DNA of 32,000 nucleotides from Candidatus Electrothrix sp. GW3-4 (GTDB lineage: Bacteria > Desulfobacterota > Desulfobulbia > Desulfobulbales > Desulfobulbaceae), in contig NZ_CP147990.1 in assembly GCF_037902255.1 (NCBI RefSeq), forward strand, positions 2,460,001 through 2,492,000. The letters run 5' to 3'. A program made the translations under genes and the position numbers. How positions within the stretch are numbered: position 1 is the stretch's first letter; the number at the start of each line of letters is the position of its first letter. A model generated the notes under the pieces. The model was not told the origin of the DNA. It did no database searches and saw nothing but the letters and a program-made list of their open reading frames with translations. Below, piece by piece: positions 926 through 28,494 of the stretch.

Positions 926-2731
926 TCAGGCAGCCATTTCCCCTGCCGAGCTCGCCAGCACGGCCTCAATACTCTTGGGAATTCCCGTATCTGCCAGCAG
1001 TTTGGCCCCAGGGCAGCGGGCTGCTACGGCCCCGGGCATCTCCCGGTACAGGCTCCCTGCCGGATCCTGGACAATCCCGGTCCCACCGACCCGCAAGACC
1101 TCCTCCATCCCCTCTCCTCCATCCTCACCCATCCCGGACAGGACAACAGCCACACTTTTCTCTTTTATTCGCTCGGCCACAGAGTAGAAGAGCATATCTA
1201 TTGACCCCCTGCGCGTGGCAAAAGGGGCTTGAGAAAGATGGAGCACCAATTCCCCCTCCAGCTCATGTACGGTCAGGTACTCATCGCCTGAGGCAAAATA
1301 GCAGACCCCGGCTTCAATCCGGGCGTTATTCTCTGCCCGCCGGATAATCAAGGGGGAAAGCCGGTTGAGATACTTAACAAAGGAATCCAGATGGCGAGAA
1401 GGGGCATAGAACATCACCAGGTATGCCACAGGAAACTGGGCAGATAAATGAGGCAGGAGCTTGAGTAAGGCCCCGTAACCGCCTTCTGCAACGCCCAGGG
1501 CGACAAGCCGTTCGCAGCGCTGACCTGCAAGGGCAAGCGCATCTTTCTTTTCCTGACTCACGGCCCGCACATATTTCACCGCCTCCAGCTCAACTTCCGC
1601 TGCCAGACGCACCTTACGCTCGATCTCGCTGGTCTGCTCCTCAAGATTTATCTCTCCGGTATTCGAGGGCTTAGCAACAAAATCCACTGCCCCGTATTTC
1701 AAGGCATCAAAGGTAACGTCAGCCCCTTCTACAGTCATTGAGCTCAACATCACGGTAGGAGTAGGGGCCTGGATCATCAGGTGTTTGATCGTTGTCAGGC
1801 CATCCATAACCGGCATTTCCACATCAAGGGTCACCACGTCTGGTTTGAGCTGGGGAATGATCTGCAACGCCTCTTCCCCGTTCTCTGCTTCGCCAACAAC
1901 TTCCACAACAGGGTTGTCTTTAAAGATATTGGCAATGACCTTTCGCATCATTCTGGAGTCATCGACAATAAATAAATTAATCTTCTGATCAGCAGCCTTT
2001 ACGCGGCTACCTTCACCCACCCCATGACCAATGGGACTGCCAGCGGCCTCCTTTTTCAATTTGGCTGTGATCAGGACAGTTTCCAAGCCCTTAGGGGTAA
2101 TAAGCTTTTCTACCCCTACTCCTGGTGGCTCCTCGGTGAATCCCAAGGGAGGCCAATCAAATATCTCCAAAGCAGCCTCAACCCCTTGCTTGTTCTCACA
2201 AGAGGCATTCACGAGCATACCGTTTTCAAAGTACAAGACGCCCTGTTTTTTACTGCCGAAATGGACGCGGATGCAGCAGGTTTTCTGCAAGGCCTCAAGG
2301 AAAGAGACTATTTTTCCGACAAATACGCCAGGGATATAGTCATTTTCATCCAGACGTTGGAGCCCTTCAAGAACTGCGCAGCCAATGGTCTCCAGGTTTG
2401 TTGGCTTAACAAGGTAGAGATAAATAGAATCTTTAAAATGACACTCTCGCACCGCGTCAACAGAGCGGTGCTTCTCCGAGATCATAACGATGCATTGGAT
2501 ATGTCGATAAGAAGAGGAAACAAGGGAGAGCAGGGCCAACGCGTCAATATTTTCCGCATTAAGATTAAGCACAAGAACAGCTATTTTTTCTTTTTTCAGG
2601 GCAAATATTTCATCCCCCCTGTTCGTGGCGGTCAGCACCTCGTACTGACTGTAGGCGGACAGAACGTCACAGAGATCATTGACAAAGGTCAGATCGTCAT
2701 CAACAATGAGAATTTTAGATATATCAGACAT
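926..2731 (-). CDS. Multidomain signalling protein: pseudo-receiver, DUF4388/PATAN domain, CheY-like receiver and a CheB-type methylesterase-like domain with a degenerate catalytic triad
   Basis: 601-aa ORF. The N-terminal REC-like fold (ILIVDDD...LVKP) has Asn at the expected phospho-acceptor position (VLVLNLN). GKIVSFLEALQKTCCIRVHFGSKKQGVLYFENGMLVNASCENKQGVEAALEIFDW matches the DUF4388/PATAN pattern. The second REC (FIVDDSRMMRKV...VTLDVEMPVMDG) resembles the E. coli CheB receiver. The C-terminal domain aligns by eye with the CheB esterase (LSGMGEDGGEGM). Confidence 0.85.
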   Translation of the reverse strand: MSDISKILIVDDDLTFVNDLCDVLSAYSQYEVLTATNRGDEIFALKKEKIAVLVLNLNAENIDALALLSLVSSSYRHIQCIVMISEKHRSVDAVRECHFKDSIYLYLVKPTNLETIGCAVLEGLQRLDENDYIPGVFVGKIVSFLEALQKTCCIRVHFGSKKQGVLYFENGMLVNASCENKQGVEAALEIFDWPPLGFTEEPPGVGVEKLITPKGLETVLITAKLKKEAAGSPIGHGVGEGSRVKAADQKINLFIVDDSRMMRKVIANIFKDNPVVEVVGEAENGEEALQIIPQLKPDVVTLDVEMPVMDGLTTIKHLMIQAPTPTVMLSSMTVEGADVTFDALKYGAVDFVAKPSNTGEINLEEQTSEIERKVRLAAEVELEAVKYVRAVSQEKKDALALAGQRCERLVALGVAEGGYGALLKLLPHLSAQFPVAYLVMFYAPSRHLDSFVKYLNRLSPLIIRRAENNARIEAGVCYFASGDEYLTVHELEGELVLHLSQAPFATRRGSIDMLFYSVAERIKEKSVAVVLSGMGEDGGEGMEEVLRVGGTGIVQDPAGSLYREMPGAVAARCPGAKLLADTGIPKSIEAVLASSAGEMAA

Positions 2732-3426
2732 GAATCATACAGCAAATTCAATTTGTAAGGAAATCCTTTGACATATGCAAAGTATGCTTTTCAAGCAATC
2801 CCCAGAAAAAAACGACCGCCATATCAGCACCCGAACTCCATCACCTTTCTAAGATAGCATATCTCAAACTGAAATCAAATTTTTATTAACAGTATTGAAA
2901 GGATTCGTGCAGTATCCTCAGGAGCGGCCCAAGCAACATAACGTCACCCCTTCTTTAATACATACCTCCTGACCACCTTTCTGGAAAGAATTATTATCAA
3001 CTCAACCCATCTACGACCTATTTTTCTGCACGATTAGCGTAAGATAGAAAATCTATTCATACTCACGGCCTCCTCTCTCCAGGAAAGACAACGCGCCCCA
3101 ACCTATCGTCTCGTTCCGCAGCAGAAAAAGCCGGGCAAAGGGGCAAGGCCATGAAGGCCGGTTGTACGGACGCGGGGCAGCCCCTTGAGAGGACGCAGGT
3201 GTGAAGCAACTCCAAAAAAACTCCCAAAAGAGTGAACGCGACTTACAAAGAAGAAAACTGACCGGTGCAGATATTAAGGGCAAGGGGCTCCTTGCCCTGT
3301 GCAACGAAACTGCCATCCCAGCGGACAGAGAGAATAAAAGATGAACCTTGGTCGAGCGACTTGAATGCTTCATCCAGCACACCCGGCACCTTCATATAAA
3401 GGATTCTGGCCAGGCAGGGGCCGGGT

Positions 3427-4704
3427 TCAGCCGCAAACGGAAGCGACAATCTTGTCAATAATGCCAGTGGTGGAGGTTGGACAGGTAAAGGCTATTCGCT
3501 CTATTCTTCCCCCAGCAGCTTTGACCTCAGCTGCACCGGCTATCTGCTCCTCGGACCAATCTGCCCCCTTGACCAGGATATCCGGCAACAGGTGGGTAAT
3601 CAGCCTGCGGGGCGTGTCTTCATCAAAGAGCACGACAAAATCCACACAACCAAGCGCTGCCAGGACCCGAGCTCGCGGGCCCTCACCATTCACCGGCCTG
3701 GAGGGCCCTTTCAAGGCCTGCACAGAGCGGTCGGAATTCAAGCCAATGACCAGACAATCTCCACAACGACGAGCCTCTTCCAGGTAGCTGACATGGCCCG
3801 CGTGCAGGAGATCAAAACAGCCATTGGTAAAGACGATTCGACTTCCCTGGGCCCGCAACGGTCTCAGGCGCTCCAACAGGACCTGCTGTTCAAGGACTTT
3901 ATCGCTGTTTTGGCCATACCACGGGCGCTCAGCCACAGAGCAAAAACGGGACCGGACCGCATCAAGGTCCGCCCCCTTGAGCTCTGTCCTAATCACTGCC
4001 GGTTGCGCATCAGCTTCAGCAAGGACCCGACCTGAAGGATCAATAATCATGGAATGACCTGCCAGCTCACCACCAGGGACCTGGCCGCTACCGTTACATG
4101 CCACCACAAAGGCCTGATTCTCCACAGCCCGCGCCTGGAGGAGGATCCGCCAGTGATCAGTACGAACTCTGGGCCATTGTGCAGAGACAACAAGCAGTCT
4201 AGCCCCTGCAAAGACCTGTCTCCGGCTGAGTTCAGGAAAGCGAAGATCATAGCAGACCAAGGCCCCGATCGGACCAAAAGGCGTCTGCACAGCCTGTGCT
4301 TCCTTGCCAGCAGTGAGATATCGATCCTCCTGCCAGGGCCTGAACAGGTGCTGTTTCTGATAACGACCAATAACCCCTTCAGGCCCAACCACAAAGAGAG
4401 AATTAGAGATCTCCCTGGATTCCTGCGTTTCCTGCCTCTCTAATAACGAGCCAGCAAACCATATCCTGCTCTGCGCCGCTTTTTCCTGGAGCTCAGCAAG
4501 GACGTGCGGGGTCTGGTCGGCAAGGGTCCCTATATTTGCATAATCAAAGCCACTCGCCCAAAGTTCGGGCAGGACAACCAAGGTGTCCGCAGAAAAGCGG
4601 GCTGCGGCCAGCATTTTTCGCAATTCATTTAGATTGGCAGCCAGATCACCTTGATGAAGAGGCATCTGCAAACAAGCAACTCGTGGGAAGACATCTCGTT
4701 CCAT
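3427..4704 (-). CDS. Fusion protein: N-terminal carbon-nitrogen hydrolase (nitrilase superfamily) domain plus C-terminal cytidylyltransferase-fold domain of the RfaE/HldE domain II (D-heptose-1-phosphate adenylyltransferase) type
   Basis: 425-aa ORF. The CN-hydrolase Glu-Lys-Cys triad contexts are present (VVLPELW, RYQKQHLF, LVCYDLRFPE). The C-terminal IVFTNGCFDLLHAGHVSYLEEARRCGDCLVIGLNSDRSVQALKGPSRPVN...ILVKGADW carries the HxGH nucleotidyltransferase motif and closely resembles RfaE domain II. Confidence 0.8.
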   Translation of the reverse strand: MERDVFPRVACLQMPLHQGDLAANLNELRKMLAAARFSADTLVVLPELWASGFDYANIGTLADQTPHVLAELQEKAAQSRIWFAGSLLERQETQESREISNSLFVVGPEGVIGRYQKQHLFRPWQEDRYLTAGKEAQAVQTPFGPIGALVCYDLRFPELSRRQVFAGARLLVVSAQWPRVRTDHWRILLQARAVENQAFVVACNGSGQVPGGELAGHSMIIDPSGRVLAEADAQPAVIRTELKGADLDAVRSRFCSVAERPWYGQNSDKVLEQQVLLERLRPLRAQGSRIVFTNGCFDLLHAGHVSYLEEARRCGDCLVIGLNSDRSVQALKGPSRPVNGEGPRARVLAALGCVDFVVLFDEDTPRRLITHLLPDILVKGADWSEEQIAGAAEVKAAGGRIERIAFTCPTSTTGIIDKIVASVCG

Positions 4705-5408
4705 TACCCCATCTCCTTGAGGGCCTGGGTGGCAAGATCGGCAACCGAAACCGTGGTGAAAACACCGTGGTTATAGAGACGCAACCTCCTCTGGTCATTT
4801 GTTGCGAGTTCCTGCAAACGCTCCATTGCCTCGGGACGTCCCAGCAGACCGATTGCCCGCGCAGCTAGCCCACAGACCGTTGCGTCAGGAGACGCCAGGT
4901 AGGGAGGCAGATCATGCTCTACCCCACGAGCAAGCAAACGTCCCTTATGACACTGGGCTAAGCGCCCCACAGCCCAGATGAGGCCCTGCTGTAGCATCTC
5001 ATGTTCAAGAAAATTTCCGTCCTGCCACTCCTCTTCACCATCTGGTCGCATGTAGGAGATCAGCATATGGATATACTCATCAGCCAAGCCCGCATGACAG
5101 CACATGATCTCGGCCATAGATTCCGGCGCACCCCAGCCGATACCACCAGACTCATCATTCAAACTCCACAGCATACGACGAAGAATCACCCGGGCCTCTT
5201 CCATGTCCTGCTCCGCCAACCGGGCTACGGCCCCGCCCATGGCAGAGACCGCATGCCAACGGATTCGCTCGTCCGGGTGACAGATCCCGAAAAAGAGGGC
5301 GTTAACCAATTCTTTTTCCTGGAGGAGGGTGAGTTCCGTTTCAATGCTGGCGAGATCGTCCTGCTTCAGCAACTCAAGCACGTGTTGCTTAATTGCTCGT
5401 GTTCCCAT
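4704..5408 (-). CDS. HEAT-repeat-like protein resembling the DVU0298 family (function unknown)
   Basis: 234-aa ORF. Helical-repeat sequence (ERIRWHAVSAMGGAVARL..., WSLNDESGGIGWGAPESMAEI) matches what I recall of the DVU0298 family. Its stop overlaps the start of the downstream CN-hydrolase fusion gene at position 4704, which suggests translational coupling. Confidence 0.55.
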   Translation of the reverse strand: MGTRAIKQHVLELLKQDDLASIETELTLLQEKELVNALFFGICHPDERIRWHAVSAMGGAVARLAEQDMEEARVILRRMLWSLNDESGGIGWGAPESMAEIMCCHAGLADEYIHMLISYMRPDGEEEWQDGNFLEHEMLQQGLIWAVGRLAQCHKGRLLARGVEHDLPPYLASPDATVCGLAARAIGLLGRPEAMERLQELATNDQRRLRLYNHGVFTTVSVADLATQALKEMG

Positions 5409-5469
5409 GCCCTTGTCCCCCGTATTCAGAATTAAAATTCATATCCTTACTCCCTATGCAGGGGAAAAA

Positions 5470-5979
5470 TCACCCCTTTGCAGGCAGGACAAAGACCCGC
5501 TTGGCCATCTCAGCATCCAGCATAAAGAGCCCTGACGAGTCGTTCTGAATCAGACGCAGTTTATTCAATACCTCGCCGACAGAGGCCTCTTCTTCCACCT
5601 GTTCAGAGACAAACCACTGTAAAAAGATCTTGGTTGCATGGTCCTGCTCAGTAATGGCCAGGTCCATCAGGCCATTAATCAAGGCCGTCACCTTCTCCTC
5701 ATGGCCCATAATCTGCTCAAACGCGGCCAGTGGGGTCTTCCAAGCTGAATCCGGCTGGTTAATCGTGTCCAAGATGACCCTCCCCCCACGCTCATTCACA
5801 TAATCGTAAAACTTCATTGCATGATACAGCTCTTCCTGGGCCTGAGCACGCATCCAGGTTGCAAAACCGGATAAACTGATCGAGCGGAAATAAGATTCCA
5901 TGGACAGATAAAGATAACCAGAATACATTTCCTCATTAATCTGGCGTGTTAAGGCGTTCAGCATTTTCTCTTTCAACAT
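5470..5979 (-). CDS. ftnA: Non-heme ferritin
   Basis: 169-aa ORF. LNALTRQINEEMYSGYLYLSM...AQEELYHAMKFYDYVNERGG...GHEEKVT...FLQWFVSEQVEEE shows the ferritin four-helix bundle with ferroxidase Glu and ExxH ligands. Confidence 0.9.
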   Translation of the reverse strand: MLKEKMLNALTRQINEEMYSGYLYLSMESYFRSISLSGFATWMRAQAQEELYHAMKFYDYVNERGGRVILDTINQPDSAWKTPLAAFEQIMGHEEKVTALINGLMDLAITEQDHATKIFLQWFVSEQVEEEASVGEVLNKLRLIQNDSSGLFMLDAEMAKRVFVLPAKG

Positions 5980-7616: not shown

Positions 7617-8699
7617 TCATTCTCCTTCCCCCTGTTTTTCATCGATACGGCGCAGCCCCTCCATAATGAGTCCCATAAATCCTCCCAAGACAGGAAGCTC
7701 TTTTTCCCTTGCAGCAAGCCCCTTGGTGTAGGTAAACAATCCTTTCTGCTTGGCCAGGAGAGAAAAAATAGCCTCTTTTCCTTCCAGGCTTCCGTATTTA
7801 CAGGAAACTATTTCACCTTCATTAAACAGGGTAACGGCCTGACCTTCATCAAAGACAAATTGCACCTGCCCTGTCTTGCCACCGGAATTGATCAACTGAA
7901 ACAGCTCCACAGAATTGATATCTGTCAGCTCACCGCTCATACCGGAACTGATATTACCCGCCCGCATGGTATTTTCCTGAGCACGGTTTACTAAGACTCT
8001 ATAGAAAAAAATTTGCAGGATAGGATACCTGGACAGGACGTGCTTAAAGTCCTTTGCCTTGAGAGCAGCCAGCTGAACCGCTGTCTTGGAATACACTGAA
8101 GGGTAGGTCAATTCTCCAGAAAGCAGACTCATTTCACCAAAGATATCGCCAGGACCGATCTCTGCTACCACCTCGTTATCCTCACGGACAACAGCCACTG
8201 TTCCGGCTAATACCACGTAGAAATGGGTTCCAAGTTCTCCGGCCTCAATAATGACCTTGTTCGCAGGATACTTTTGCAGCTTCATCAGAAGGGCAAGGTC
8301 CTGGAGATCAAAATCATCCAGAGGCTCAAACAACTCCATCTCCCGAAGTAGACCGAAGAATTCTTCAATAAGTTGTTTCTTTGCCCGTTTTTTCGCGACC
8401 TCAAGAAGATTCATCTGCAAAGTGGAGTAGGCATTCTCCTTTTTATACTCAAAACGAATCAGGCCGGTACAGCCGCCGCACTCAAATTTCGTTCGCCGCA
8501 TCCCGGTCTGGGTGAAACGAGGCTGTAAGGGTCTTGTCCCGGTCAGCGCCTTCAGCACTTCCTGAACCAGCATCAGACAGACTTCTTTATTGTGCTCAAT
8601 GGTCAGCGTGGAATCATGAATGACAAATTCATCGCCAACATTATATATGGGACATGCGTGCTCTTCGGTAACAACGAATACAGCATTGCGATATTCCAT
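7617..8699 (-). CDS. Three-domain signalling protein: conserved Cys4 N-terminal domain, cyclic-nucleotide-binding domain, DUF4388/PATAN domain (paralog 1)
   Basis: 360-aa ORF with Cys16, Cys41 and CGGC at 74-77. The cNMP-binding beta-roll is seen in VIIEAGELGTHFYVVLAGTVAVV...IGPGDIFGEMSLLSG. The C-terminal GELTDINSVELFQLINSGGKTGQVQFVFDEGQAVTLFNEGEIVSCKYGSLEGKEAIFSLL fits DUF4388. Confidence 0.8.
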   Translation of the reverse strand: MEYRNAVFVVTEEHACPIYNVGDEFVIHDSTLTIEHNKEVCLMLVQEVLKALTGTRPLQPRFTQTGMRRTKFECGGCTGLIRFEYKKENAYSTLQMNLLEVAKKRAKKQLIEEFFGLLREMELFEPLDDFDLQDLALLMKLQKYPANKVIIEAGELGTHFYVVLAGTVAVVREDNEVVAEIGPGDIFGEMSLLSGELTYPSVYSKTAVQLAALKAKDFKHVLSRYPILQIFFYRVLVNRAQENTMRAGNISSGMSGELTDINSVELFQLINSGGKTGQVQFVFDEGQAVTLFNEGEIVSCKYGSLEGKEAIFSLLAKQKGLFTYTKGLAAREKELPVLGGFMGLIMEGLRRIDEKQGEGE

Positions 8700-8795: not shown

Positions 8796-9869
8796 TCAGC
8801 TCACCTGTTCCTCGTCTAACTTTTGCAGCCCTTCCATCAATAGGCCCATAAAGCCACCAAGCACAGGCAGATCTTCATATTTCTTGGCAAGTTCCGTGTT
8901 ATAGGTAAAGGACCCCTTCTTTTTGGACAAGAGCGCAAATAACGCATCCTTCCCATGAAGGTCTCCGAAAGAGGCATGAATAATTTCTCCCTCCTTAAAA
9001 AGGATAGTGGCATGGCCATCGTGAAAAATCAAGTCAACTTTACCGGATTTACCACCACTATTAATCAACTGAAAAAGCTCTACCGGATTGATATAAATCA
9101 GTTCCCCACTCATACCAGAACTAATTTTACCGGACCTGGCCATATTCATTTGCGCACGGTTCACCAGCAGACGATAGAAAAAGATCTGCAGAACCGGATA
9201 TCGATTAAGAATAAATTTCAGGTCCTTTCCGTTAATTGTACCAAACTTGACCACGGTCCGAGAATGAACCGAGCTGCTTGCAGGTTCTCCTGAAAGCAAA
9301 CTCATCTCACCAAAGATCTCACCCCGTCCTATCTCAGCGATGACCTCATTATCCCCTTTGATAATAGCGACCTTACCGGAGAGTATAATGTACAGATGCG
9401 TTCCCCTCGTTCCCTCGGAGATAATAACCTTATTCGGATCAAACTGTTTCAACTTCAGCATTGAAATCAGATCTAACAAATCATGATCTTCAAGAAGCTC
9501 AAACACCTGCATGGTCCGGAGATGTTTAAACAGGGCTTCCACATGCCGTTTCCTCGCCTTTTTATCAGCGATGCGCAGAAGATTCATCTGCAACGTGGAA
9601 AATCCCCGTTCCTTTTTATACTCAAAGCGCATGGAACCTGTGCAGCCGGGGCAGCGGAAGGATGCCCGTTGCATAGCCATCTGCGTAAATCGCTGTTCCC
9701 CTGGTTTTTTAGCAAGCGCTTTATGGAGTTCACGCACCAAGATCAAGCAGACCGGTTTTTCATAGTCCACACTCACTGCCGAATCTTGAATCTGGATTTC
9801 TTCACCTACATTGTAAATAGGGCAGGAATCCTCCGAGGTAACAACAAAAACAGCGTTACGATATTCCAT
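8796..9869 (-). CDS. Three-domain signalling protein: Cys4 N-terminal domain, cyclic-nucleotide-binding domain, DUF4388/PATAN domain (paralog 2)
   Basis: 357-aa ORF collinear with the neighbouring 360-aa protein. It has the identical N-terminus MEYRNAVFVVT, conserved Cys16, Cys41 and CPGC at 73-76, IGRGEIFGEMSLLSG, and GELIYINPVELFQLINSGGKSGKV. Confidence 0.8.
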   Translation of the reverse strand: MEYRNAVFVVTSEDSCPIYNVGEEIQIQDSAVSVDYEKPVCLILVRELHKALAKKPGEQRFTQMAMQRASFRCPGCTGSMRFEYKKERGFSTLQMNLLRIADKKARKRHVEALFKHLRTMQVFELLEDHDLLDLISMLKLKQFDPNKVIISEGTRGTHLYIILSGKVAIIKGDNEVIAEIGRGEIFGEMSLLSGEPASSSVHSRTVVKFGTINGKDLKFILNRYPVLQIFFYRLLVNRAQMNMARSGKISSGMSGELIYINPVELFQLINSGGKSGKVDLIFHDGHATILFKEGEIIHASFGDLHGKDALFALLSKKKGSFTYNTELAKKYEDLPVLGGFMGLLMEGLQKLDEEQVS

Positions 9870-15776: not shown

Positions 15777-16622
15777 TCAGATTCGTCGGGAAAAACGAAA
15801 AACATTATGCGGACAGATGTCAATACAGCGCCCGCAGTTCAGACAGTTTTTTGCAAGAATAAACGGTGAGCTCTGCGCATCACCTTTGAGCGCAGGCCGG
15901 ATGACCTGGGGTTCAGGACAGACAGCAAAACAATCGCCGCAATCGGTACATTGCCCTCGTCCAGCAGCCTTTATTCTCAGAAGAGCAACAAAGCTCAACA
16001 GGCTGTACATGGCTCCCATGGGGCAGAGATGCCCGCACCAAGCACGCCGCAGCAGAAAAGCATCAAAGGCAAAAATGGCCAGGATGAAAATCCATCCCAT
16101 CCCCATACCGAACAACAGACCCCGCTGCAACATGGTCACCGGGTTGAGCCATTCATAAACAATGGTTCCGCTGACAGCAGACAAGATAAGAATCGCCCCC
16201 ATGAACCCATAGCGCGTCTTCTTGCTCAGCTGGAGGACTTTTTTCATCCCCATCCTCCTGTTCAACCAGGCAGCTGTATCAGTCACCAGGTTCACGGGGC
16301 AGACCCAGGCACAGAATACTCCGCCACCAAGCAAGGCATAGAGGACGATCACGACCAAGGCACCGACCAAGGCGCTTGATGCTGGCGAATGACCGGCTGC
16401 AAGGGATTGGAACATAATCAGCGGGTCTGTCATAGGAAGGAAACCCAAGACCTCGCTGGCTGACAGGGTTCCTCTGATAAGCCAAAGCCCGAGCAAAGGA
16501 CCTGCCAAAAAAATCCCCAGAATGGCAAGCTGCGAGATTCGACGCAGAAGCAGCCATTTATACGAGCGTACCCAACCTTTTTTTTCCACCGCCTCTTGGC
16601 CTGGCCTTCTTTTCTCGATCAT
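15777..16622 (-). CDS. napH: Membrane-bound quinol dehydrogenase subunit of the Nap system
   Basis: 281-aa ORF with four TM segments, CPVNLVTD and CGHLCPMGA motifs, and C-terminal [13 protein letters not shown] and [13 protein letters not shown] ferredoxin motifs. Its start overlaps the napG stop by 4 nt. Confidence 0.9.
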
Positions 16623-17497
16623 GGCAATTCCTCCGGCATCCGCACAGGCAATTGCAGGGCCTCAGGTATAAGGGACTGGCCTGCTTTCTCTTTCTCCTGC
16701 CAACCCAGACGATAATGGTGCCCAAGCTCACCCCGTGCCTGGGCAAGGGGCAGCACCTTGATCGCTGGATGTTCCAAAATGCAGGAACGTTCGCATTTTC
16801 CGCAGCCTGTACAGTGCTTGGAATGCACTGTGGGAATAAAACGGGCATGCATGCCGGTTCGTTGATTCGCTACCATATCCAGGGTCAGGGCCTTATCCAG
16901 TACCGGGCAGTTCCGATAGCAGACATCACAGCGCAGCCCCTGAAAACCGATGCAATTTTCATGATCAATGAGCACGGCCAGTCCCATTCTTGCCTCATAG
17001 ACGGAAGGCTCCTTCTTTTCCTCATCGAGAAGGGTCTTCTGACTCAAGGCCCCGGAAGGGCAGGCCCGGACGCAGGGCATATCCTCACATAAGCGGCAGG
17101 GACTGGTTCGGGGAACAAAATACGGGGTCCCCACCGGAACATCGCTGCCTGCTTCGGCCAAACGCAAAACCGGCTCCAGCTCTACAGAGGCGTTGGGATT
17201 CACCTCCATTGGCCCGTCGGCATTCATCTCCGGCATGTCATTATTGCGCAGGAGATTGGCATGACAGGCCCGGACACATTGCCCGCAACGCAGGCAGGCT
17301 GCCTGGAACGCCTTTTCCGGCAGAGCCCCTGGTGGGCGTATTGCCCGGGCAGGCACAGCCTGAGCAGAGCGCTGATAGGCCCCCAGCCCCACAGCCAGCA
17401 CAAAGGCCCCAGCAGCAGCTGACAGGGTATCTCTCAGAAAGCGACGACGTCCCTCCTCCTCCCTGTTATGGTGCTGTCTTGTTTCTCTTTCATCCAT
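16619..17497 (-). CDS. napG: Periplasmic ferredoxin-type subunit of the Nap quinol dehydrogenase
   Basis: 292-aa ORF with a twin-arginine signal ([17 protein letters not shown]) and four Cys clusters ([45 protein letters not shown]). Confidence 0.9.
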
Positions 17498-17531
17498 TTC
17501 GGTCTCCTTAGGCCATGCTTGAGATCTTGCT

Positions 17532-20024
17532 TTAGGCCTTGGTCACCTTGACGGCACATTTTTTATAATCCGTTTCTTTGGAGATCGGACAGGTGGCATC
17601 CAGAGTCAGCTTATTGACCAGGCGGCCTGCATCAAACCAGGGCACAAACACCAGCCCTTCCGGCGGCTTATTCCTTCCTCTGGTCTCCAGAGGACAGGTA
17701 ATCTCACCCCGACGGGAAGCAAGCTTGACCAGCTGCCCGCGCTTGAGGCCCCGTTTTTCCGCATCCTTGGGATGCATAAAGACCTGAGCATCAGGCACAG
17801 CCCGGTACAGCTCCGGCACCCTTCTGGTCATGGAACCGGAATGCCAATGCTCCAGGACCCGACCGGTACAGAGCCAGAGATCATACTCCTTATCCGGTGA
17901 TTCCGCAGGCGGCTCATAGGGCAAGGCAAAGATCACCGCCTTACCATCGAGCTTACCGTAAAAACGAATGCCCTCACCCTTCTTCACATAGGGATCATAG
18001 CCTTCCCGGAACCGCCACAGGGTTTCTTTATTATCCACCACCGGCCAACGCAGGCCACGTGCCTTATGATACATCTCAAAGGGGGCCAGGTCATGACCAT
18101 GTCCCCGGCCAAAGCTGGCATACTCCTCAAACAGGCCCTTTTGCAGGTAGAAACCAAAATGATGAGCCTCGTCGTTATCGTGCCCCTTTTGCAGTTCGCT
18201 CAAGGGGAACTTATCCACCTGTCCATTGGTATAGAGCACCTCATACAGGGTCTTGCCCTTATAGGCTGGATTCTTGTCCAGGAGCTCCTGAGGCCAGATC
18301 TCATCGGTTGTGAAGTACTTGGAAAACTCCACCAGCTGCCAGAGATCACTCTTTGCCTCACCCGGTGCCTTGACCTGCTGGCGGAAAAACTGGGTCCGAC
18401 GTTCCGCATTGCCATAGGCCCCTTCCTTTTCTGTCCACATGGCTGTGGGCAGGATCAGATCACCAGCCATCGCCGTGACCGTGGGATAGGGATCAGAAAC
18501 CACGACAAAGTTTTTCGGATTGCGGTAGCCAGGATAGGCTTCCTCGTTGATATTGGCAGCGGCCTGCATGTTATTATTACACATGACCCAATAGGCATTG
18601 AGCTTCCCGTCCTTAAGCATCCTGTTCTGAAGCACAGCATGATAGCCAGGTTTCCCAGGAATGGTACCAGCGGGTAATTTCCAGATCTTCTCTGCTATCT
18701 CACGATGCTTGGGATTTTTCACCACCATGTCAGCAGGCAGGCGATGAGAGAAGGTACCCACCTCACGGGCCGTACCGCAGGCCGAGGGCTGGCCGGTGAG
18801 CGAAAAGGGGCCATTGCCTGGTTCGGAGATCTTGCCGGTGAGCAGATGGATATTATAGCAGAGCTGATTGGCCCAGGTGCCACGGGTATGTTGATTAAAG
18901 CCCATGGTCCAGTAGGAGACCACCTTGCGCTTGGGATCTGCATAGAGCTCAGCCAGAGCCTCTAAATCCTTTTTTGGCACCCCGGATATCTCATGGGCCT
19001 TGTCCAAGGTGTACTCGGAGACATACTTGGCATACTCCTCAAAGGTGTACTCTTTTGAGCCACCTGTATTCGCAGCATTGGCAGCCTTTTTTTCCCTAGG
19101 GTCTTCGGGACGCAGACCATAGCCGATATCGGTATTACCGATACGAAAATTGATGTGCTTGTCGACAAAATCCTTATTCACCTTGTTATTCTTAATAATA
19201 TAATTGGCAATATAATTCATGATGGCCAGATCGCTCTGGGGTTTGAACACCATAGGAATATCTGCCAGGTCAAAACAACGGTGCTCATAGGTAGAAAGCA
19301 CGGCCACCTTGACATGATTCGCTGTCAGGCGTCGATTAGTGAGCCGGGACCAAAGAATAGGGTGCATCTCCGCCATGTTGGAGCCCCAGAGGACAAAGGC
19401 ATCTGCATTCTCCAGGTCATCATAACAGCCCATAGGCTCGTCAATGCCAAAGGTACGCATAAAACCCGCAACAGCTGAGGCCATACAATGGCGGGCATTG
19501 GGATCAAGATTATTGGAGAGAAAACCTGCCTTAAAGAGCTTGGCAGCGGCATAGCCTTCCCAGACCTGCCATTGCCCGGAACCGAACATACCCACCGTGG
19601 TTGGTCCGTTCTTGTGAATCGCCTCTTTAAATTTCTCGGCCATGATCTTGAAGGCCTCCTCCCAGGAGACCGGAGTAAATTCGCCGTTTTTATCGTACTT
19701 GCCGTTTTTCTTGCGCAGCAAAGGTTTGGTGAGGCGATCCTTGCCGTACATGATCTTGGTCAGGAAATAACCCTTGATACAGTTCAACCCCTTATTCACC
19801 GGGGCATCAGGGTCGCCCTGGGTCGCCACAATCCGACCGTCCTTGGTCCCCACCAAGACACCGCAACCTGTACCGCAAAAACGACAAGGTGCCTTATCCC
19901 ATCGGATCCCCTTATCCCCCTCAGCAGCCAAGGCCTTTTGCGTGGCCGGGAGCTGCGCACCTGCAACAGCGGCAGCGGCCATTGCAGCGTTGGCCTTAAT
20001 AAAATCACGCCTGTTTAGCTTCAT
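17532..20024 (-). CDS. napA: Periplasmic nitrate reductase catalytic molybdopterin subunit
   Basis: 830-aa ORF with a Tat signal ([19 protein letters not shown]), the N-terminal 4Fe-4S motif CRFCGTGCG and the Mo-ligand context ARHCMASAV. It appears collinear with NapA throughout. Confidence 0.97.
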
Positions 20025-22061: not shown

Positions 22062-23531
22062 ATGAGAGTGGTATTGTGGACGGCTGCCTTGGCGCTGGCA
22101 GTCGGAATACAAGGTGGGAACGTGCAGGCCGCGCAGAAAAGCGGGCTGCCCAGCCAATTGTCAGAGGAAACCAAAACATGTTTGCAATGTCATAAAGACA
22201 TTAACCGGGGCATGTATCAACAATGGGGATCCAGTAAACATTTCGGCGCCAATGTGGGCTGTTACGAATGTCATCAGGCCGACGCTGGGGACAAAGATGC
22301 TATGCAGCATAACGGCTTCACTGTTTCCATTATTGTTTCACCCAAGGATTGTGCCAAATGTCATGAAAAAGAGGTCAAGGAATTTGAGGGATCACATCAT
22401 TCCAAGGCCGGACAGATCATGGGTTCCCTGGACAACCTGCTTGCTGAGGTTGTTGAAGGCAACCGTGGCATGAAGACCGAAAGTTTCCCGGACGGAATTT
22501 CAGCGGCAGCGGTCAACGGTTGCTGGCAATGTCACGGATCCAAGGTTAAGATAATGAAGGATGGTCGGCTGGATCCGGCCACTTGGCCGAACAGCGGCAT
22601 TGGACGCATCAATCCTGACGGGAGCACAGGAAGTTGCGCAGCATGCCATCAACGCCATGATTTCTCTGCGGCCCAGGCCAGAAATCCTGAGAACTGCGGT
22701 AAATGTCATATGGGACCCGATCATCCGCAGCTTGAGGTCTATAATGAATCCAAGCACGGTATTGCTTTCCGGGCCAATAAGGACAAGATGAATCTCGATT
22801 CTCCGAAATGGATAGCCGGTGAAGATTACTCTGCTGCCCCGACCTGCGCCACCTGTCATATGTCCGCGACCAAAGATCTGGATATCACCCATAACGTCGG
22901 CCTCCGCATCAAGTGGAACAACCGACCGCCGATCTCCAAGCTGTCGCATACCACTGACAAACGCTGGAAGCTGGAATCTGCCAACTACACTGCTGATCAA
23001 CGCCGGAAAGACATGCAAAAAGTCTGTATCTCATGTCACAATAAAAACTTTACAGATAACTTCTTTGTCCAGTATGAAGCTCTGATTGACCTCTATCACG
23101 AGAAATTCGCCAAACCCGGCATGGAACTGTACAACAAAGCAACAGAACTGCTCAAGGTCCTCAAAGGTAAAGAGTATGCCAAGTTTGCTCAGCTCATTGA
23201 TTACACTTGGTTTGAGATCTGGCATCATGAAGGTCGTCGCGCACGTCACGGTGCGGCCATGATGGCACCGGACTACACCCATTGGCACGGCACCTATGAA
23301 GTTGCCAAGCACTGGTACGGCAAGTACATCCCGGAACTCGAAGAACTCATTGAAACGGCCAAGCACAGCGGCAATAAAGAAGCTGAGAAATTGGGTGGTG
23401 AGCTTGCAACGATGCTCGAAGATGTGAAGAAGAACGAGAACCATAAATGGTCCATCGGGCAGGAAAACGAAGCTGACAAGAAATTACGGCTTGAGCGTAA
23501 GAAAGAATACGACGCTGGCTACGCCAACTAA
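22062..23531 (+). CDS. Hydroxylamine-oxidoreductase-family octaheme cytochrome c (epsilon-Hao-like; probable periplasmic nitrite reductase)
   Basis: 489-aa ORF with signal peptide MRVVLWTAALALAVGIQGGNVQA. Eight CxxCH motifs (CLQCH, CYECH, CAKCH, CWQCH, CAACH, CGKCH, CATCH, CISCH). HAO-family signatures CHMGPDHPQLEVYNESKHG and WHHEGRRARHGAAMMAPDY. Strong SD (AGGAGG). Confidence 0.85.
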   Translation: MRVVLWTAALALAVGIQGGNVQAAQKSGLPSQLSEETKTCLQCHKDINRGMYQQWGSSKHFGANVGCYECHQADAGDKDAMQHNGFTVSIIVSPKDCAKCHEKEVKEFEGSHHSKAGQIMGSLDNLLAEVVEGNRGMKTESFPDGISAAAVNGCWQCHGSKVKIMKDGRLDPATWPNSGIGRINPDGSTGSCAACHQRHDFSAAQARNPENCGKCHMGPDHPQLEVYNESKHGIAFRANKDKMNLDSPKWIAGEDYSAAPTCATCHMSATKDLDITHNVGLRIKWNNRPPISKLSHTTDKRWKLESANYTADQRRKDMQKVCISCHNKNFTDNFFVQYEALIDLYHEKFAKPGMELYNKATELLKVLKGKEYAKFAQLIDYTWFEIWHHEGRRARHGAAMMAPDYTHWHGTYEVAKHWYGKYIPELEELIETAKHSGNKEAEKLGGELATMLEDVKKNENHKWSIGQENEADKKLRLERKKEYDAGYAN

Positions 23532-24598: not shown

Positions 24599-26709
24599 AT
24601 GAAACGCATCAATCAACTCGTTGCCAACGTCCTGCTCTACTGCCTGTTCCCCTTGCTCGGAGCTGGATCTGCTCAAGCAGCCGGTCTGCTCACCCCAAGC
24701 GACCATAGCCTGCCAGCCCTGGAAATCAAGGATCACCGCGTGCAAGTGGTTATTGAGGACGGCTACGCCATCACCACGGTGGAACAGGTCTTTCATAATC
24801 CGCATGCACAGGATCTTGAGGCGATGTATTCCTTTCCAGTACCGGAAAAGGCTGCGGTTGCAGAGTTCACCCTGTGGATCGACAATAAGCCGGTACACGG
24901 TGAAGTGCTGGAAAAGGACAAGGCCAGAACGATCTATGAAGAACAGAAGGCTGCCGGAGAGGACGCCGGGCTGACCGAAAAAGACAGTTACAAGACCTTT
25001 GACATCATGGTGTCGCCGGTGCGGGCGGGACAGGACACCCGAATCCGGATCGGCTATATCCAGCCGGTCAAGGTGGACAGTTCTATGGGACGTTATGTCT
25101 ATCCCTTGGAGGAAGGCGGGGTGGATGACGCCAAGCTCTCCTTCTGGACAGCCAATGAAAAGGTTACCCATACCTTCCGTTTTGATCTGATCCTGCGGCC
25201 CGGCTATCCGGTGGACGGGATACGCCTGCCCAACCACCCTACAGCCACCATTGAACACAAGGGAGACAGCTACCATGTCCATCTCGGCAACAGCAGCGGT
25301 CCCCCTCTCCAGAGGCGATCGTTGATACGGAAAACAGGAAAGGAAACACGGCAGCGCGCCCGGAAACTGGACAGAAGATTGCCCAGACAACAAGCCTGCA
25401 ACAACCGGGTGCAGCCTTTACTCTGGACAGGGATATTGTGGTCTACTATCGCCACGCGGAAAACCTGCCCGGTGCAGTCGACCTGGTCACCTATAAGCCG
25501 GAACAGGGAAAGACAGGTACCTTTATGCTCACGCTCACTCCGGCCATGGATCTCAAACCCATCACCGAGGGCCGGGACTGGCTTTTTATCCTGGATATTT
25601 CGGGATCCATGAGTGGCAAGTATCACACCCTGGCAGAAGGCGTCAGCCGGGCTTTGCAAAAGATGGCCCCTGATGAGCGATTCCGAATAATCCTGTTCAA
25701 TGATTCCGCTGCTGAACTGACCCAAGGCTATACCCCGGCCACCCCGGAGAACGTGCAGCAATATATCGACAAGGTCGGGAAGATCGGGCCTCATGGGAGT
25801 ACCAATGTCTACGACGGCCTGTACAAGGGCTTGAAGGGTCTGGACAGCGACCGAACCAGCGCGGTCCTCCTGGTGACCGATGGGGTGGCCAATGTGGGGG
25901 TTACCAAACAAAAGGACTTTATCAAACTGATCCGCAGCTATGATGTACGCCTCTTCACCTTTATCATGGGCAACAGTGCCAACCTCCCCCTGCTCACCGC
26001 CATCACCGATGCCTCCAACGGTTTTGCCATGACGGTTTCCAACAGCGACGACATTGTCGGCTCCATCCTGCTGGCCCAATCCAAGGTCACCCATGAGGCC
26101 CTGCACGGGGCAAAACTTACAATCAAAGGCATCAAGACCTTTGACCTGCTGCCGGAGAAAATCGGCAGCCTCTATCGCGGGCAGCAGCTGATCATGTTCG
26201 GTCATTACAGCAGGGGCGGCCAAGCGAAAGTCACCCTGAGCGGCAAGATCTCTGGTGAAGAAAAGATTTACCAGAGCGAGTTTATCTTCCCGGAGACCTC
26301 CTCAGCAAACCCTGAACTGGAACGACTCTGGGCCTATGCCAGCATTGAGCAGCTCAGCCGGGAGATGGAAGATTTCGGCGAAGATGCCGATATGAAACAG
26401 GCGATAACCGATCTGGGCGTTCAGTACGGCCTGGTCACCGATTACACCTCTATGATTGTGGTACGGGACGGGGTGTTCAAGAAACTCGGTATCGAACGGA
26501 GAAACACCAAGCGGTTACAACGGGAATTCGCTGCCCAGAAGGAACGGGCTGCCAAACCACTTGTACAACGTCGGGCTGATACGGCACGCCCCATGTTTAA
26601 GAGCAAGCGGCCCACCACGCGCCGTTCTGGTGGTGGAAGCTTTGACCTGATCTCTTTGCTTGTGCTCTTACCCTTGGTCTGGATCGGGCGCAGAAAAAAA
26701 CAGGCCTAA
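24599..26709 (+). pseudogene. VIT-domain plus von Willebrand factor A-domain protein with a C-terminal GlyGly-CTERM sorting signal. The reading frame is interrupted by a 1-nt frameshift near 25301-25305
   Basis: ORF 24599-25612 encodes a signal peptide (LLYCLFPLLGAGSAQA) and a VIT-like N-domain up to ...HVHLGNSSG, then turns into Arg-rich nonsense. A different frame is open from 25255 and reads SPSPEAIVDTENRKGN...FTLDRDIVVYYR into ORF 25438-26709, which carries the vWA MIDAS motif DISGSMSG and VLLVTDGVANVG. The C-terminus RRSGGGSFDLISLLVLLPLVWIGRRKKQA is Gly-Gly plus a TM helix plus a basic tail. Confidence 0.8.
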
Positions 26710-27492: not shown

Positions 27493-28494
27493 TCATGCTC
27501 CCGCCTGGATATCGCTGATTACATTTACAACAAGCCGAATAAGCAGATCTTTTTGTTCCGGGGCGCTGGAGGCAATGAGCAGGGTCAGGGCCACCAGGGC
27601 CTTATCATCTGGGATTACCCGGTGCTGGTTGCTCTGTAAAAACAGGAGAAAAAGAAAGGAGCCGATGCGTTTATTGCCATCAATAAAGGGGTGATCCTTG
27701 ATGACAAAATAGAGCAGATGAGCGGCTTTTTCTTCAATGCTGGGATAGAGATCCTGGCCAGCAAAGCTCTGTCCCACAGCACCGAGGATTCCGGCCAGGC
27801 CCTGTCCACGTTCCTGACCAAAGATATACGTGGCCTCCCCACGTACCATCAGTTCCTGACGCAAGGAGGGCACGGCTTCCCGTACCTCCTCCAATCCTGG
27901 CACCTTCTTGCTTGTCCTCTTACTTGTCCCCTCTGACCTATCGGGCAGAGGTAAGGCATCTTCATCATACTGCCAGAGCAGTTGCCAGGTGCGGGCATAG
28001 TTTCGCACCAAAGAAAGGATGGTCCTGCCGTCATCACTGACTAACGCGTGATTCTCCAGGGTCTCACTCAACAAATCCAGTACCTGCCTGACCTCGGCCC
28101 CCCCTTTTTCCACCAGCCGCTGCTGATGCAGGGTGTATCCCTGGACCAGATGCTGTTTGAGCACGCTGGTCGCCCAGATCCGAAACTGGGTACCGCGCTT
28201 GGAATTAACCCGGTAGCCAACAGAAAGAATAGCGTCAAGGTTATAATAATCAACCTGATAGGTTTTGCCATCTGCGGCAGTTGTTGCATTTTTTGCAACA
28301 ACTGCTGAACGCTCCAGTTCCTCGGACTGAAAAATATTGCGAAGATGCCGAGATATTACCGATTTATCCCTTCCAAAAAGCTCAGCGACCTGGTTCAAGG
28401 TCAGCCAGACGGTTTCATCCCTCAGCTGCACGTCCACAGCAGCCTGACCATCACCGGTCTGATAGACAATAACTTCTCCCTGCTCAAAGGTCAT
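27493..28494 (-). CDS. RhuM-like N-terminal domain fused to a Fic/Doc-family domain (Doc-type motif HPFIDGNKR)
   Basis: 333-aa ORF. The N-terminal WLTLNQVAELFGRDKSVISRHLRNIF...YNLDAILSVGYRVNSKRGTQFRIWAT is RhuM-like. The C-terminal YFVIKDHPFIDGNKRIGSFLFLLFL is the Fic-fold active-site motif in its Doc (NKR) variant. Confidence 0.85.
   Translation of the reverse strand: MTFEQGEVIVYQTGDGQAAVDVQLRDETVWLTLNQVAELFGRDKSVISRHLRNIFQSEELERSAVVAKNATTAADGKTYQVDYYNLDAILSVGYRVNSKRGTQFRIWATSVLKQHLVQGYTLHQQRLVEKGGAEVRQVLDLLSETLENHALVSDDGRTILSLVRNYARTWQLLWQYDEDALPLPDRSEGTSKRTSKKVPGLEEVREAVPSLRQELMVRGEATYIFGQERGQGLAGILGAVGQSFAGQDLYPSIEEKAAHLLYFVIKDHPFIDGNKRIGSFLFLLFLQSNQHRVIPDDKALVALTLLIASSAPEQKDLLIRLVVNVISDIQAGA

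Follow-up and report, generated by a model that had tools for sequence, protein, structure and literature searches.

The locus described here raises the question of what an amidase and a sugar-phosphate adenylyltransferase do on one polypeptide chain, and whether their joining reflects a common chemistry. It lies in a stretch of 32,000 nucleotides from the genome of Candidatus Electrothrix sp. GW3-4 (contig NZ_CP147990.1, positions 2,460,001 to 2,492,000), which is called the window below. Within this stretch, a single open reading frame (ORF) encodes a protein of 425 amino acids (aa) that combines a carbon-nitrogen (CN) hydrolase with the adenylyltransferase HldC, also known as RfaE domain II, and its start codon overlaps the end of a gene of the DVU0298 family, which encodes a HEAT-like protein. 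The evidence tips slightly towards an explanation in which two chemically independent enzymes, the HldC of the cell and a Nit-type amidase, are carried on one chain after the fusion of an overlapping gene pair. The residue C151 of the N-terminal half would attack a small amide with the help of E47, K117 and E126, which would yield ammonia and a carboxylate, and the C-terminal half would act as the ordinary HldC of the organism. The fused gene would be translationally coupled to the HEAT-like gene within a ferritin - DVU0298 - fusion cluster, and the amidase half would be a likelier partner of the HEAT-like protein than HldC. The explanation implies neither ammonia channelling nor any other common chemistry between the halves, and the HldC fold may in addition be a structural appendage of the amidase. 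Nothing found demonstrates a shared chemistry of the two halves. The features of the locus are collected in Table 1.

Table 1. Coordinates of the fusion gene, its domains and the genes directly upstream, in positions of the window.
Feature	Position	Strand	Description and basis
CN-hydrolase::HldC fusion protein	3427..4704	-	single 425-aa ORF, ATG start; ORF list, Pfam, NCBIfam
Nit/YafV-like nitrilase-superfamily amidase domain	3952..4683	-	residues 8-251; PF00795
Inter-domain segment	3862..3951	-	residues 252-281; hydrolase tail and HldC N-terminal helix
HldC / RfaE-domain-II adenylyltransferase domain	3448..3861	-	residues 282-419; TIGR02199
TAATG stop/start overlap, DVU0298 gene to fusion gene	4702..4706	-	sequence
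DVU0298-family HEAT/ARM-like alpha-solenoid protein, 234 aa	4704..5408	-	NF045662, HEAT_2, AF2
Ferritin gene, first of the ferritin - DVU0298 - fusion trio	5470..5979	-	PF00210, E=5.3e-43

The initial annotation had described the ORF as an apparently intact catalytic triad followed by a linker and a nucleotidyltransferase, and all the motifs it quoted are found there. In the N-terminal half these are LPELW at residues 45-49 (E47, codon 4566-4564), QKQHLF at residues 116-121 (K117, codon 4356-4354) and VCYDLRF at residues 150-156 (C151, codon 4254-4252), to which a second glutamate, E126 (codon 4327-4329), can be added. The C-terminal half carries CFDLLHAGH at residues 296-304 (HAGH at 3793-3804) and KGADW at residues 379-383. 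Both domain identifications agree with the profile searches. The N-terminal domain matches Pfam CN_hydrolase with E=1.3e-44 and 152.9 bits (cutoff 23.2), and residues 292-385 match Pfam CTP_transf_like (E=2.2e-15). The NCBIfam model TIGR02199 rfaE_dom_II aligns over its profile positions 5-142 of 144 (E=1.7e-58) with 196.5 bits, above the curated equivalog-domain cutoff of 181.5, which places the C-terminal domain in this family. The E-values of both domains lie far beyond what chance would be expected to give. The N-terminus of the protein (MERDVFPRVACLQ) lines up with its homologues, which supports the ATG start codon. The inter-domain segment consists of the conserved hydrolase tail (RSRFC..ERPW) and the N-terminal helix of HldC, without an extra domain, and R251, F254 and P261 are conserved in this region of the fusion homologues. 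The AlphaFold2 (AF2) model of the fusion has a mean local confidence (pLDDT) of 89.8 and a predicted template modelling score (pTM) of 0.82, with the pLDDT falling to 61-68 at residues 251-270. In a Foldseek comparison of the full model with the PDB, no solved chain covers both domains; all matches have a query TM-score (TMq) <=0.54 and concern the amidase half only.

The first alternative to be weighed is that the ORF results from an assembly error or a frameshift, or is a pseudogene in which two genes have merged. The 425-aa fusion was searched against 5.8 billion proteins, and the best 120 clusters of homologues were considered. This survey of the architecture, which the initial annotation had proposed, showed that 119 of the 120 clusters combine the two Pfam domains in a single protein, at 55-80% identity and mostly at a length of 416-439 aa. 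The organisms named among them are Candidatus Electrothrix, Candidatus Electronema, Desulfobulbus and Desulfogranum, and contigs of 2.7-4.1 Mb are included. At 50%-identity clustering, about 20 representative clusters span both domains over their full length, down to 34% identity. Residue conservation was computed over 52 fusion homologues; E47, K117, E126 and C151 are invariant in 52/52 and kept in more distant ones, and the catalytic residues of the C-terminal half are invariant as well. The window further shares about 20 kb of synteny with Candidatus Electrothrix laxa (locus L081). Since the uninterrupted architecture is common to 119 of the best 120 clusters, which come from independent assemblies with closed genomes among them, the CN-hydrolase::HldC fusion is genuine and conserved, and an assembly artefact is excluded. 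The initial annotation had taken two genes with a stop codon between them in relatives as a sign of such an artefact. Separate genes were indeed seen in two distant relatives, Desulfatibacillum alkenivorans (L026) and one Desulfobacterales metagenome-assembled genome (MAG; L008), but they represent a natural arrangement of the ancestral type, and an artefact or pseudogene retains a negligible probability.

The two split loci also suggest how the fusion could have arisen. In the isolate D. alkenivorans DSM 16219 the amidase (267 aa) and HldC (158 aa) are encoded by separate genes with an overlap of 29 nucleotides (nt), and in the MAG the corresponding proteins have 262 and 160 aa and the genes overlap by 8 nt. 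In both cases the second gene passes TIGR02199 with 194 bits, and the product of the first is once more YafV/Nit-like. The boundary between the genes lies within the region matching fusion residues 251-285, which holds the hydrolase tail (R..F/IPC..ER.P) and the HldC N-terminal helix, with no added linker domain. The fusion would have derived from such a neighbouring, overlapping amidase-hldC pair, still unfused in Desulfobacterales, and an insertion or deletion within the overlap would join both reading frames.

The N-terminal half has the features of the nitrilase superfamily, namely the PF00795 profile, the alpha-beta-beta-alpha fold and the Glu-Lys-Cys triad with the second Glu. Its sequence matches in the PDB are 3p8k from S. 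aureus, 2e11 (XC1258 from Xanthomonas), NitFhit, yeast Nit3 and Nit2 and mouse Nit2, and its fold matches 3p8k, 2e11, Nit3 and Nit2 with target TM-scores (TMt) of 0.75-0.85. The best NCBIfam model is PRK10438 (NF007757), the YafV-type amidohydrolase, with 147.4 bits against a cutoff of 249, and the Nit1-type deaminated glutathione amidase model NF033621 gives 115.2 bits against 355; both scores stay below the level of membership. Judged by these matches, the domain is a Nit-type amidase that forms a subfamily of its own, and it looks active because E47, K117, E126 and C151 do not vary. PMC8711792 cites YafV as an amidase that acts on 2-oxoglutaramate and serves metabolite repair. An omega-amide such as 2-oxoglutaramate, or another of the metabolite-repair type, would be a reasonable substrate for the domain, which is a guess drawn from the closest families only.

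CN-hydrolase domains are known as the glutaminase part of the glutamine-dependent NAD synthetase NadE. With this in mind, the initial annotation had suggested a possible amidase/amidotransferase coupled to nucleotidylation chemistry; on the NadE analogy, the CN-hydrolase would be a glutaminase feeding ammonia to the adenylating domain. The NadE model NF010588 does match the N-terminal domain (E=4.9e-15), but this reflects superfamily similarity, with 54.9 bits against a cutoff of 479, below membership and below the 115-147 bits of the YafV and Nit models. The C-terminal domain is an HxGH nucleotidyltransferase, not a PP-loop amidating synthetase, and no PP-loop family occurs among the Pfam or NCBIfam matches of the fusion. 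To our knowledge, ammonia is not needed for HldC catalysis. In L026 and L008 the halves are separate proteins, and the amidase persists elsewhere without a functional partner domain, in the forms described below. The analogy with NAD synthetase does not hold up against these findings, and a glutaminase role is highly improbable.

The C-terminal half is closest in the PDB to 5x9q, the HldC of Burkholderia pseudomallei (BpHldC), which matches over its whole chain to fusion residues 278-421 (E=1.4e-35). The substrate and nucleotide motifs of BpHldC are TNG, NSD, KG, ExTP, KGG and FEHDRSTT (PMC7993394). All of them are present in the domain as FTNG(CFD), HAGH, NSD, KGPSRP, EDTP, KGADW, which is a G-to-A variant, and F..STT. 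The KGA(DW) variant is also found in 10 HldCs without amidase linkage. Most key residues of these motifs are invariant in the 52 fusion homologues, and the invariant columns include T293-D298, H301, G303, H304, N323, K332-G333, R336-P337, T364-P365, K379-G380, D382 and S411. Compared with HldCs of many phyla, either standalone or of the HldE type, the domain shows 50-65% identity. For the comparison of loci, a genome scan with the pattern VFTNGCFD was used and the best 80 loci were considered, so the conservation of that motif among the scanned loci follows by construction.

The position of the gene in relatives gives a further indication of its identity. Plain hldC follows comF in L018, L023, L024, L064 and L068, and the order hldC-pgeF-pyrK is found, again with plain hldC, in L020 and L065. 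The amidase-hldC pair of L026 lies in the order comF-amidase-hldC-pgeF-pyrK and that of L008 in the order amidase-hldC-pyrK, and comF is followed by the fusion in L011, L015, L016 and L027. Because the pairs of L026 and L008 occupy the comF-hldC-pgeF-pyrK slot that holds plain hldC in relatives, the C-terminal domain is most likely an ordinary hldC product. In a neighbour-joining (NJ) tree of this domain, the amidase-linked HldCs fall into at least four groups among the unlinked HldCs of related taxa and do not make one divergent paralogue clade. In L019 and L046, hldC is immediately preceded by gmhA; in the same tree, L019 branches closest to the Desulfobulbales fusions among the loci outside them. 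As a side observation on these neighbours, the ComF family consists of a double zinc ribbon and a phosphoribosyltransferase, PgeF/YfiH is a Cu-oxidase_4 protein, and the comF-hldC-pgeF-pyrK-like order is shared by Desulfobacterales-type genomes.

No match to the HldE kinase domain was found by tblastn in the window or in L081, and no kinase gene lies within 8 kb of the amidase-linked loci; about 36 other loci have an HldE-type kinase directly upstream. One Desulfuromonadales locus (L013), considered as a partial fusion, proved to be an HldE-type kinase with its adenylyltransferase and was removed from the amidase-linked set. A literature search found no paper linking cable bacteria with heptose or lipopolysaccharide (LPS), and the terms heptose, rfaE, hldE, gmhA and carbon-nitrogen are absent from the supplements of three cable-bacteria genome or proteome papers.

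The fusion is not the only form in which the amidase occurs. In L095 there is a 4-nt overlap between the gene of a DVU0298 homologue, with 43% identity, and the gene of a 365-aa amidase protein (L095:1314-2411), in which the amidase tetrad is intact and only a truncated C-terminal extension follows. This form is one of about 11 representative clusters of 346-381 aa. Ten of them were aligned (P0146, P0147, P0150, P0152, P0153, P0158, P0165, P0166, P0231 and P0263; P0267 has the same length pattern), and 10/10 keep the amidase tetrad, with an extension that is devoid of TNGCFD, HxGH, NSD, KG..RP, ExTP, KGxD and STT. Five members were scanned with Pfam, which gives no match to their extension even at E<=1, but hhalign identifies it as HldC-derived with 98.6% probability (E=8e-16, 91 columns). 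Such a motif-less HldC extension looks like the remnant of a pseudo-enzyme. A further form occurs in L087, where the genes of desulfoferrodoxin, ferritin, a flavodiiron protein and a DVU0298 homologue with 51% identity are followed, in this order, by an amidase gene. Here the amidase of 276 aa is 47% identical to the N-terminal domain of the fusion, and its gene terminates at a stop codon of its own, 14 nt before the end of the contig.

These forms indicate that the amidase has a role of its own, because the DVU0298 gene stays beside it both in L095, where HldC has decayed, and in L087, where the amidase has its own stop codon. On this comparison of loci, the persistent pair within the clade is DVU0298 and the amidase, and HldC catalysis is dispensable for the role of that pair. 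The retained dead remnant, together with the pTM of the AF2 model, also suggests a packing of the HldC fold against the amidase, where it may be of structural importance.

The remnant leads to another possible explanation, in which the C-terminal domain is not the working HldC of the cell even in the fusion. It would be an appendage for oligomerisation or nucleotide sensing, or would use another sugar phosphate, and a canonical HldC or HldE would be encoded elsewhere. The sister lineage, in which the amidase still carries an HldC-derived domain that is truncated and without motifs, implies that the fold is retained there for a non-catalytic reason, with HldC activity coming from elsewhere if heptose is made. 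Besides, the gene sits with ferritin and DVU0298 in Desulfobulbaceae, not with envelope genes, and its TIGR02199 score is only 15 bits over the cutoff. Opposed to these points are the invariant catalytic and substrate motifs of the 52 fusion homologues and the positional orthology with plain hldC in relatives. In addition, no second, non-fused HldC labelled Desulfobulbaceae was found among the best 80 loci, which is weak evidence given the pattern-limited scan. Such an appendage role, or another substrate, of the otherwise intact domain is unlikely, and an ordinary HldC that may additionally serve as a structural element is preferred.

The HEAT-like protein encoded upstream was assigned to the DVU0298 family in the initial annotation, and the profile searches are in line with this. 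The NF045662 DVU0298_fam model aligns over positions 2-213 of 213 with 206.5 bits (cutoff 75), which gives family membership, and HEAT_2 is matched as well. The sharing of nucleotide 4704 by the two genes, noted at the same time, can be read directly from the minus strand AAGGAGATGGGGTAATGGAACGA (...GAG ATG GGG TAA TGG AAC...), where TAA occupies 4706-4704 and ATG 4704-4702. A Shine-Dalgarno-like AAGGAG lies upstream of the fusion start at 4718-4713. An overlap of 1 or 4 nt between the DVU0298 gene and the amidase gene is also present in L081, L082, L084, L085, L086 and L095, and the two genes adjoin each other in L001, L003, L081-L086, L087 and L095.

The AF2 model of the DVU0298 protein (pLDDT 91.1) is almost entirely helical, and a Foldseek search with this model matched only generic or designed ARM/alphaRep repeat proteins. 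The top match, labelled ComF, was rejected, since it is due to an artificial alphaRep crystallisation helper. The protein has an invariant LNDESGGIGWGAPE loop (the invariant loop is also given as NDESGGIGWGAPE). Such a solenoid with an invariant loop fits a binding or scaffold protein, and no specific function is assigned to it. The best 120 matches of a homologue search were close relatives, and those with an organism name belong to Electrothrix, Electronema, Desulfobulbus or Thermodesulfobacteriota only. No publication on the DVU0298 family was found in a literature search. The only paper found to mention DVU0298 lists it as a CO-dehydrogenase locus of D. vulgaris (PMC2901600, Table 2). This label is ill-matched to a HEAT-like protein and looks like an error; it says nothing about the family.

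The ferritin - DVU0298 - fusion trio (its upstream side at 4704-5979 of the window) is kept across Desulfobulbaceae genera, with variable outer flanks. It was found in Electrothrix (L081), Electronema (L082), Desulfogranum (L084), Desulfobulbus (L085 and L086), L001 and L003, and it is not present in L002, L004 and the more distant fusion loci. As a separate observation, the DVU0298-amidase pair of L087 stands behind the genes of desulfoferrodoxin, ferritin and flavodiiron protein, which hints at a link with oxidative or iron stress. In Desulfogranum and Desulfobulbus the fusion is followed by a small gene of the heavy-metal-associated (HMA, PF00403) type (L084:7343-7537, L085:7354-7545, L086:2301-2492), and in one homologue of 502 aa (P0088) HMA and the amidase::HldC protein form a single chain.

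It remains to be considered whether the two halves, possibly with the DVU0298 protein, could serve one undescribed pathway. For example, the amidase could remove or process an amide on a compound that is later adenylylated by the C-terminal domain, or the destruction of 2-oxoglutaramate could pull a glutamine-dependent sugar transamination forward in nucleotide-sugar synthesis. Nucleotide-sugar genes do occur directly upstream of the fusion: a gene of a short-chain dehydrogenase/reductase (SDR) type epimerase/dehydratase abuts it in L005 and L094, and a gene of a sugar-phosphate nucleotidyltransferase (PF00483 NTP_transferase) overlaps it by 4 nt in L092. The 317-aa SDR of L005 was tried as HldD and rejected, since the heptose epimerase model (cutoff 274.6) gives it 123.8 bits; it scores higher on the dTDP-glucose dehydratase and GalE models, below their cutoffs, and was left as a generic sugar-nucleotide epimerase/dehydratase. 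The overlapping gene pair of L026 and L008 would also suit a joint pathway. On the other side, the HldC motifs and the TIGR02199 score indicate the standard substrate pair, and in many relatives this slot holds hldC with no amidase beside it. In one lineage the amidase is retained together with a dead HldC part, and in L087 its gene has its own stop codon. Finally, we know of no step in ADP-heptose synthesis that involves an amide. A joint pathway is quite unlikely in view of these points.

The explanation by two independent enzymes on one chain has its own weak sides, and the following points count against it. The amidase-hldC linkage, fused or adjacent, recurs in several separate branches of both the HldC and the amidase trees, the pTM of 0.82 suggests a defined orientation of the domains, and an HldC-derived remnant stays on the amidase after catalysis is lost. 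All three hint at more than an accidental coupling and also count in favour of a joint pathway. The NJ trees were built from short domains and have low resolution. Profile scans found no gmhA, hldA, gmhB, hldD, heptosyltransferases, second hldC or other heptose or LPS genes in the window, and the most likely identity of the domain as an ordinary HldC is based on synteny in more distant relatives. The N-terminal domain lies below the cutoff of every named amidase model, which makes it a separate subfamily and its substrate a guess.

A still closer association is conceivable, namely a physical complex of the DVU0298 protein, the amidase and the HldC fold, whose function in Desulfobulbaceae and relatives would be an undescribed one; this is decidedly improbable. 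One possibility for such a complex would be amide processing or metabolite repair tied to nucleotide-sugar or adenylylated-metabolite chemistry, another a connection with oxidative or iron stress, given the ferritin, desulfoferrodoxin and flavodiiron neighbours. The HldC domain would then be a functional partner, or a structural one after its decay, rather than a passenger.

With two independent enzymes as the preferred explanation, both chemistries are well known, the mechanism is unsurprising, and current understanding is not overturned. The locus is of value as a bacterial "Rosetta stone", in which the same two modules are found fused, split, with one half decayed and, at one locus, as an amidase with its own stop codon. 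It links an orphan Nit-type amidase to hldC and to the DVU0298 family, and since the substrates of the Nit family are mostly unknown, this link is a concrete starting point. The lineage with the motif-less HldC would illustrate cleanly how an enzyme domain can be retained as the pseudo-enzyme appendage of another protein. Should cable bacteria have no HldC other than the fusion, it would belong to their envelope biosynthesis. The initial annotation had been aware of no assigned function for the combination, and this stands: no publication on the CN-hydrolase::HldC architecture was found in the literature search, and the public database names of the fusion homologues follow the HldC half only. 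Such naming overlooks an intact 260-aa amidase with invariant catalytic residues and calls for a correction of the annotation.

Other parts of the window contain several observations of separate interest. Downstream of the fusion, 695 nt (2732-3426) without a convincing ORF, but with a weak terminator-like hairpin at 3328-3313, precede an unusual CheB-type methylesterase of 601 aa (926-2731, minus strand), which has two Response_reg stretches, a DUF4388/PatA_N-like segment near the N-terminus and a C-terminal CheB_methylest domain. Rfam scanning found no family anywhere in the window, and the promoter and terminator scans near the genes were not usefully above shuffled expectation. Two tandem paralogues of 360 and 357 aa (7617-8699 and 8796-9869, both on the minus strand) have counterparts with cNMP_binding and PatA_N/DUF4388 domains in Electrothrix, Electronema and Desulfogranum, and a C-terminal tail like theirs occurs in the ORF upstream of DVU0298 in L095. 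An 830-aa molybdopterin oxidoreductase with two 4Fe-4S ferredoxin-type partner genes (15777-20024, minus strand) and a 489-aa multihaem cytochrome (22062-23531, plus strand; Multi-haem_cyto, weak MtrC/MtrF-like match) may be relevant to cable-bacterial electron transfer. The window further holds overlapping ORFs with VIT and von Willebrand factor A domains (24599-26709, plus strand), which may be one frameshifted VIT-VWA gene or two adjacent genes, and a RhuM-family/Fic-domain protein (27493-28494, minus strand).

Domain fusions of CN-hydrolases are common, and five known systems can be compared with the present one. First, BpHldC (5x9q) resembles the C-terminal domain over the whole chain and has FTNG, HxGH, NSD, KG..RP, ExTP, KG(G/A)D and F..STT in common with it; it differs by KGGDY in place of KGADW, and only the fusion carries an N-terminal amidase of 260 aa. 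Second, HldE of the E. coli type has the same adenylyltransferase domain at its C-terminus, with the same N-terminal helix, and its model NF008454 aligns fusion residues 267-420 to positions 319-472. Its N-terminal part, however, is a PfkB kinase instead of a CN-hydrolase, and the fusion stays outside this family with 190.9 bits against a cutoff of 521. Third, the amidases YafV, Nit2, Nit3, Nit1 and 3p8k are like the N-terminal domain in length (about 260 aa), in the E-K-E-C set and in the lack of extra insertions, whereas the fusion is set apart by its sub-cutoff scores, the attached HldC and the coupling to the DVU0298 HEAT-like gene. The fourth system is NitFhit of worms and flies (1ems), in which a Nit amidase is likewise fused to a nucleotide-handling domain, with separate genes elsewhere, and the Nit half matches the N-terminal domain with E=4.2e-23. 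The partner there is a dinucleotide hydrolase of the HIT family and not an HxGH nucleotidyltransferase, and the two fusions are independent, which leaves an analogy only. The glutamine-dependent NAD+ synthetase, finally, also combines a CN-hydrolase with an ATP-using domain that forms an adenylylated intermediate, but its partner is of the PP-loop type, whereas that of the fusion is an HxGH Rossmann-like domain whose HldC reaction has no ammonia-accepting step.

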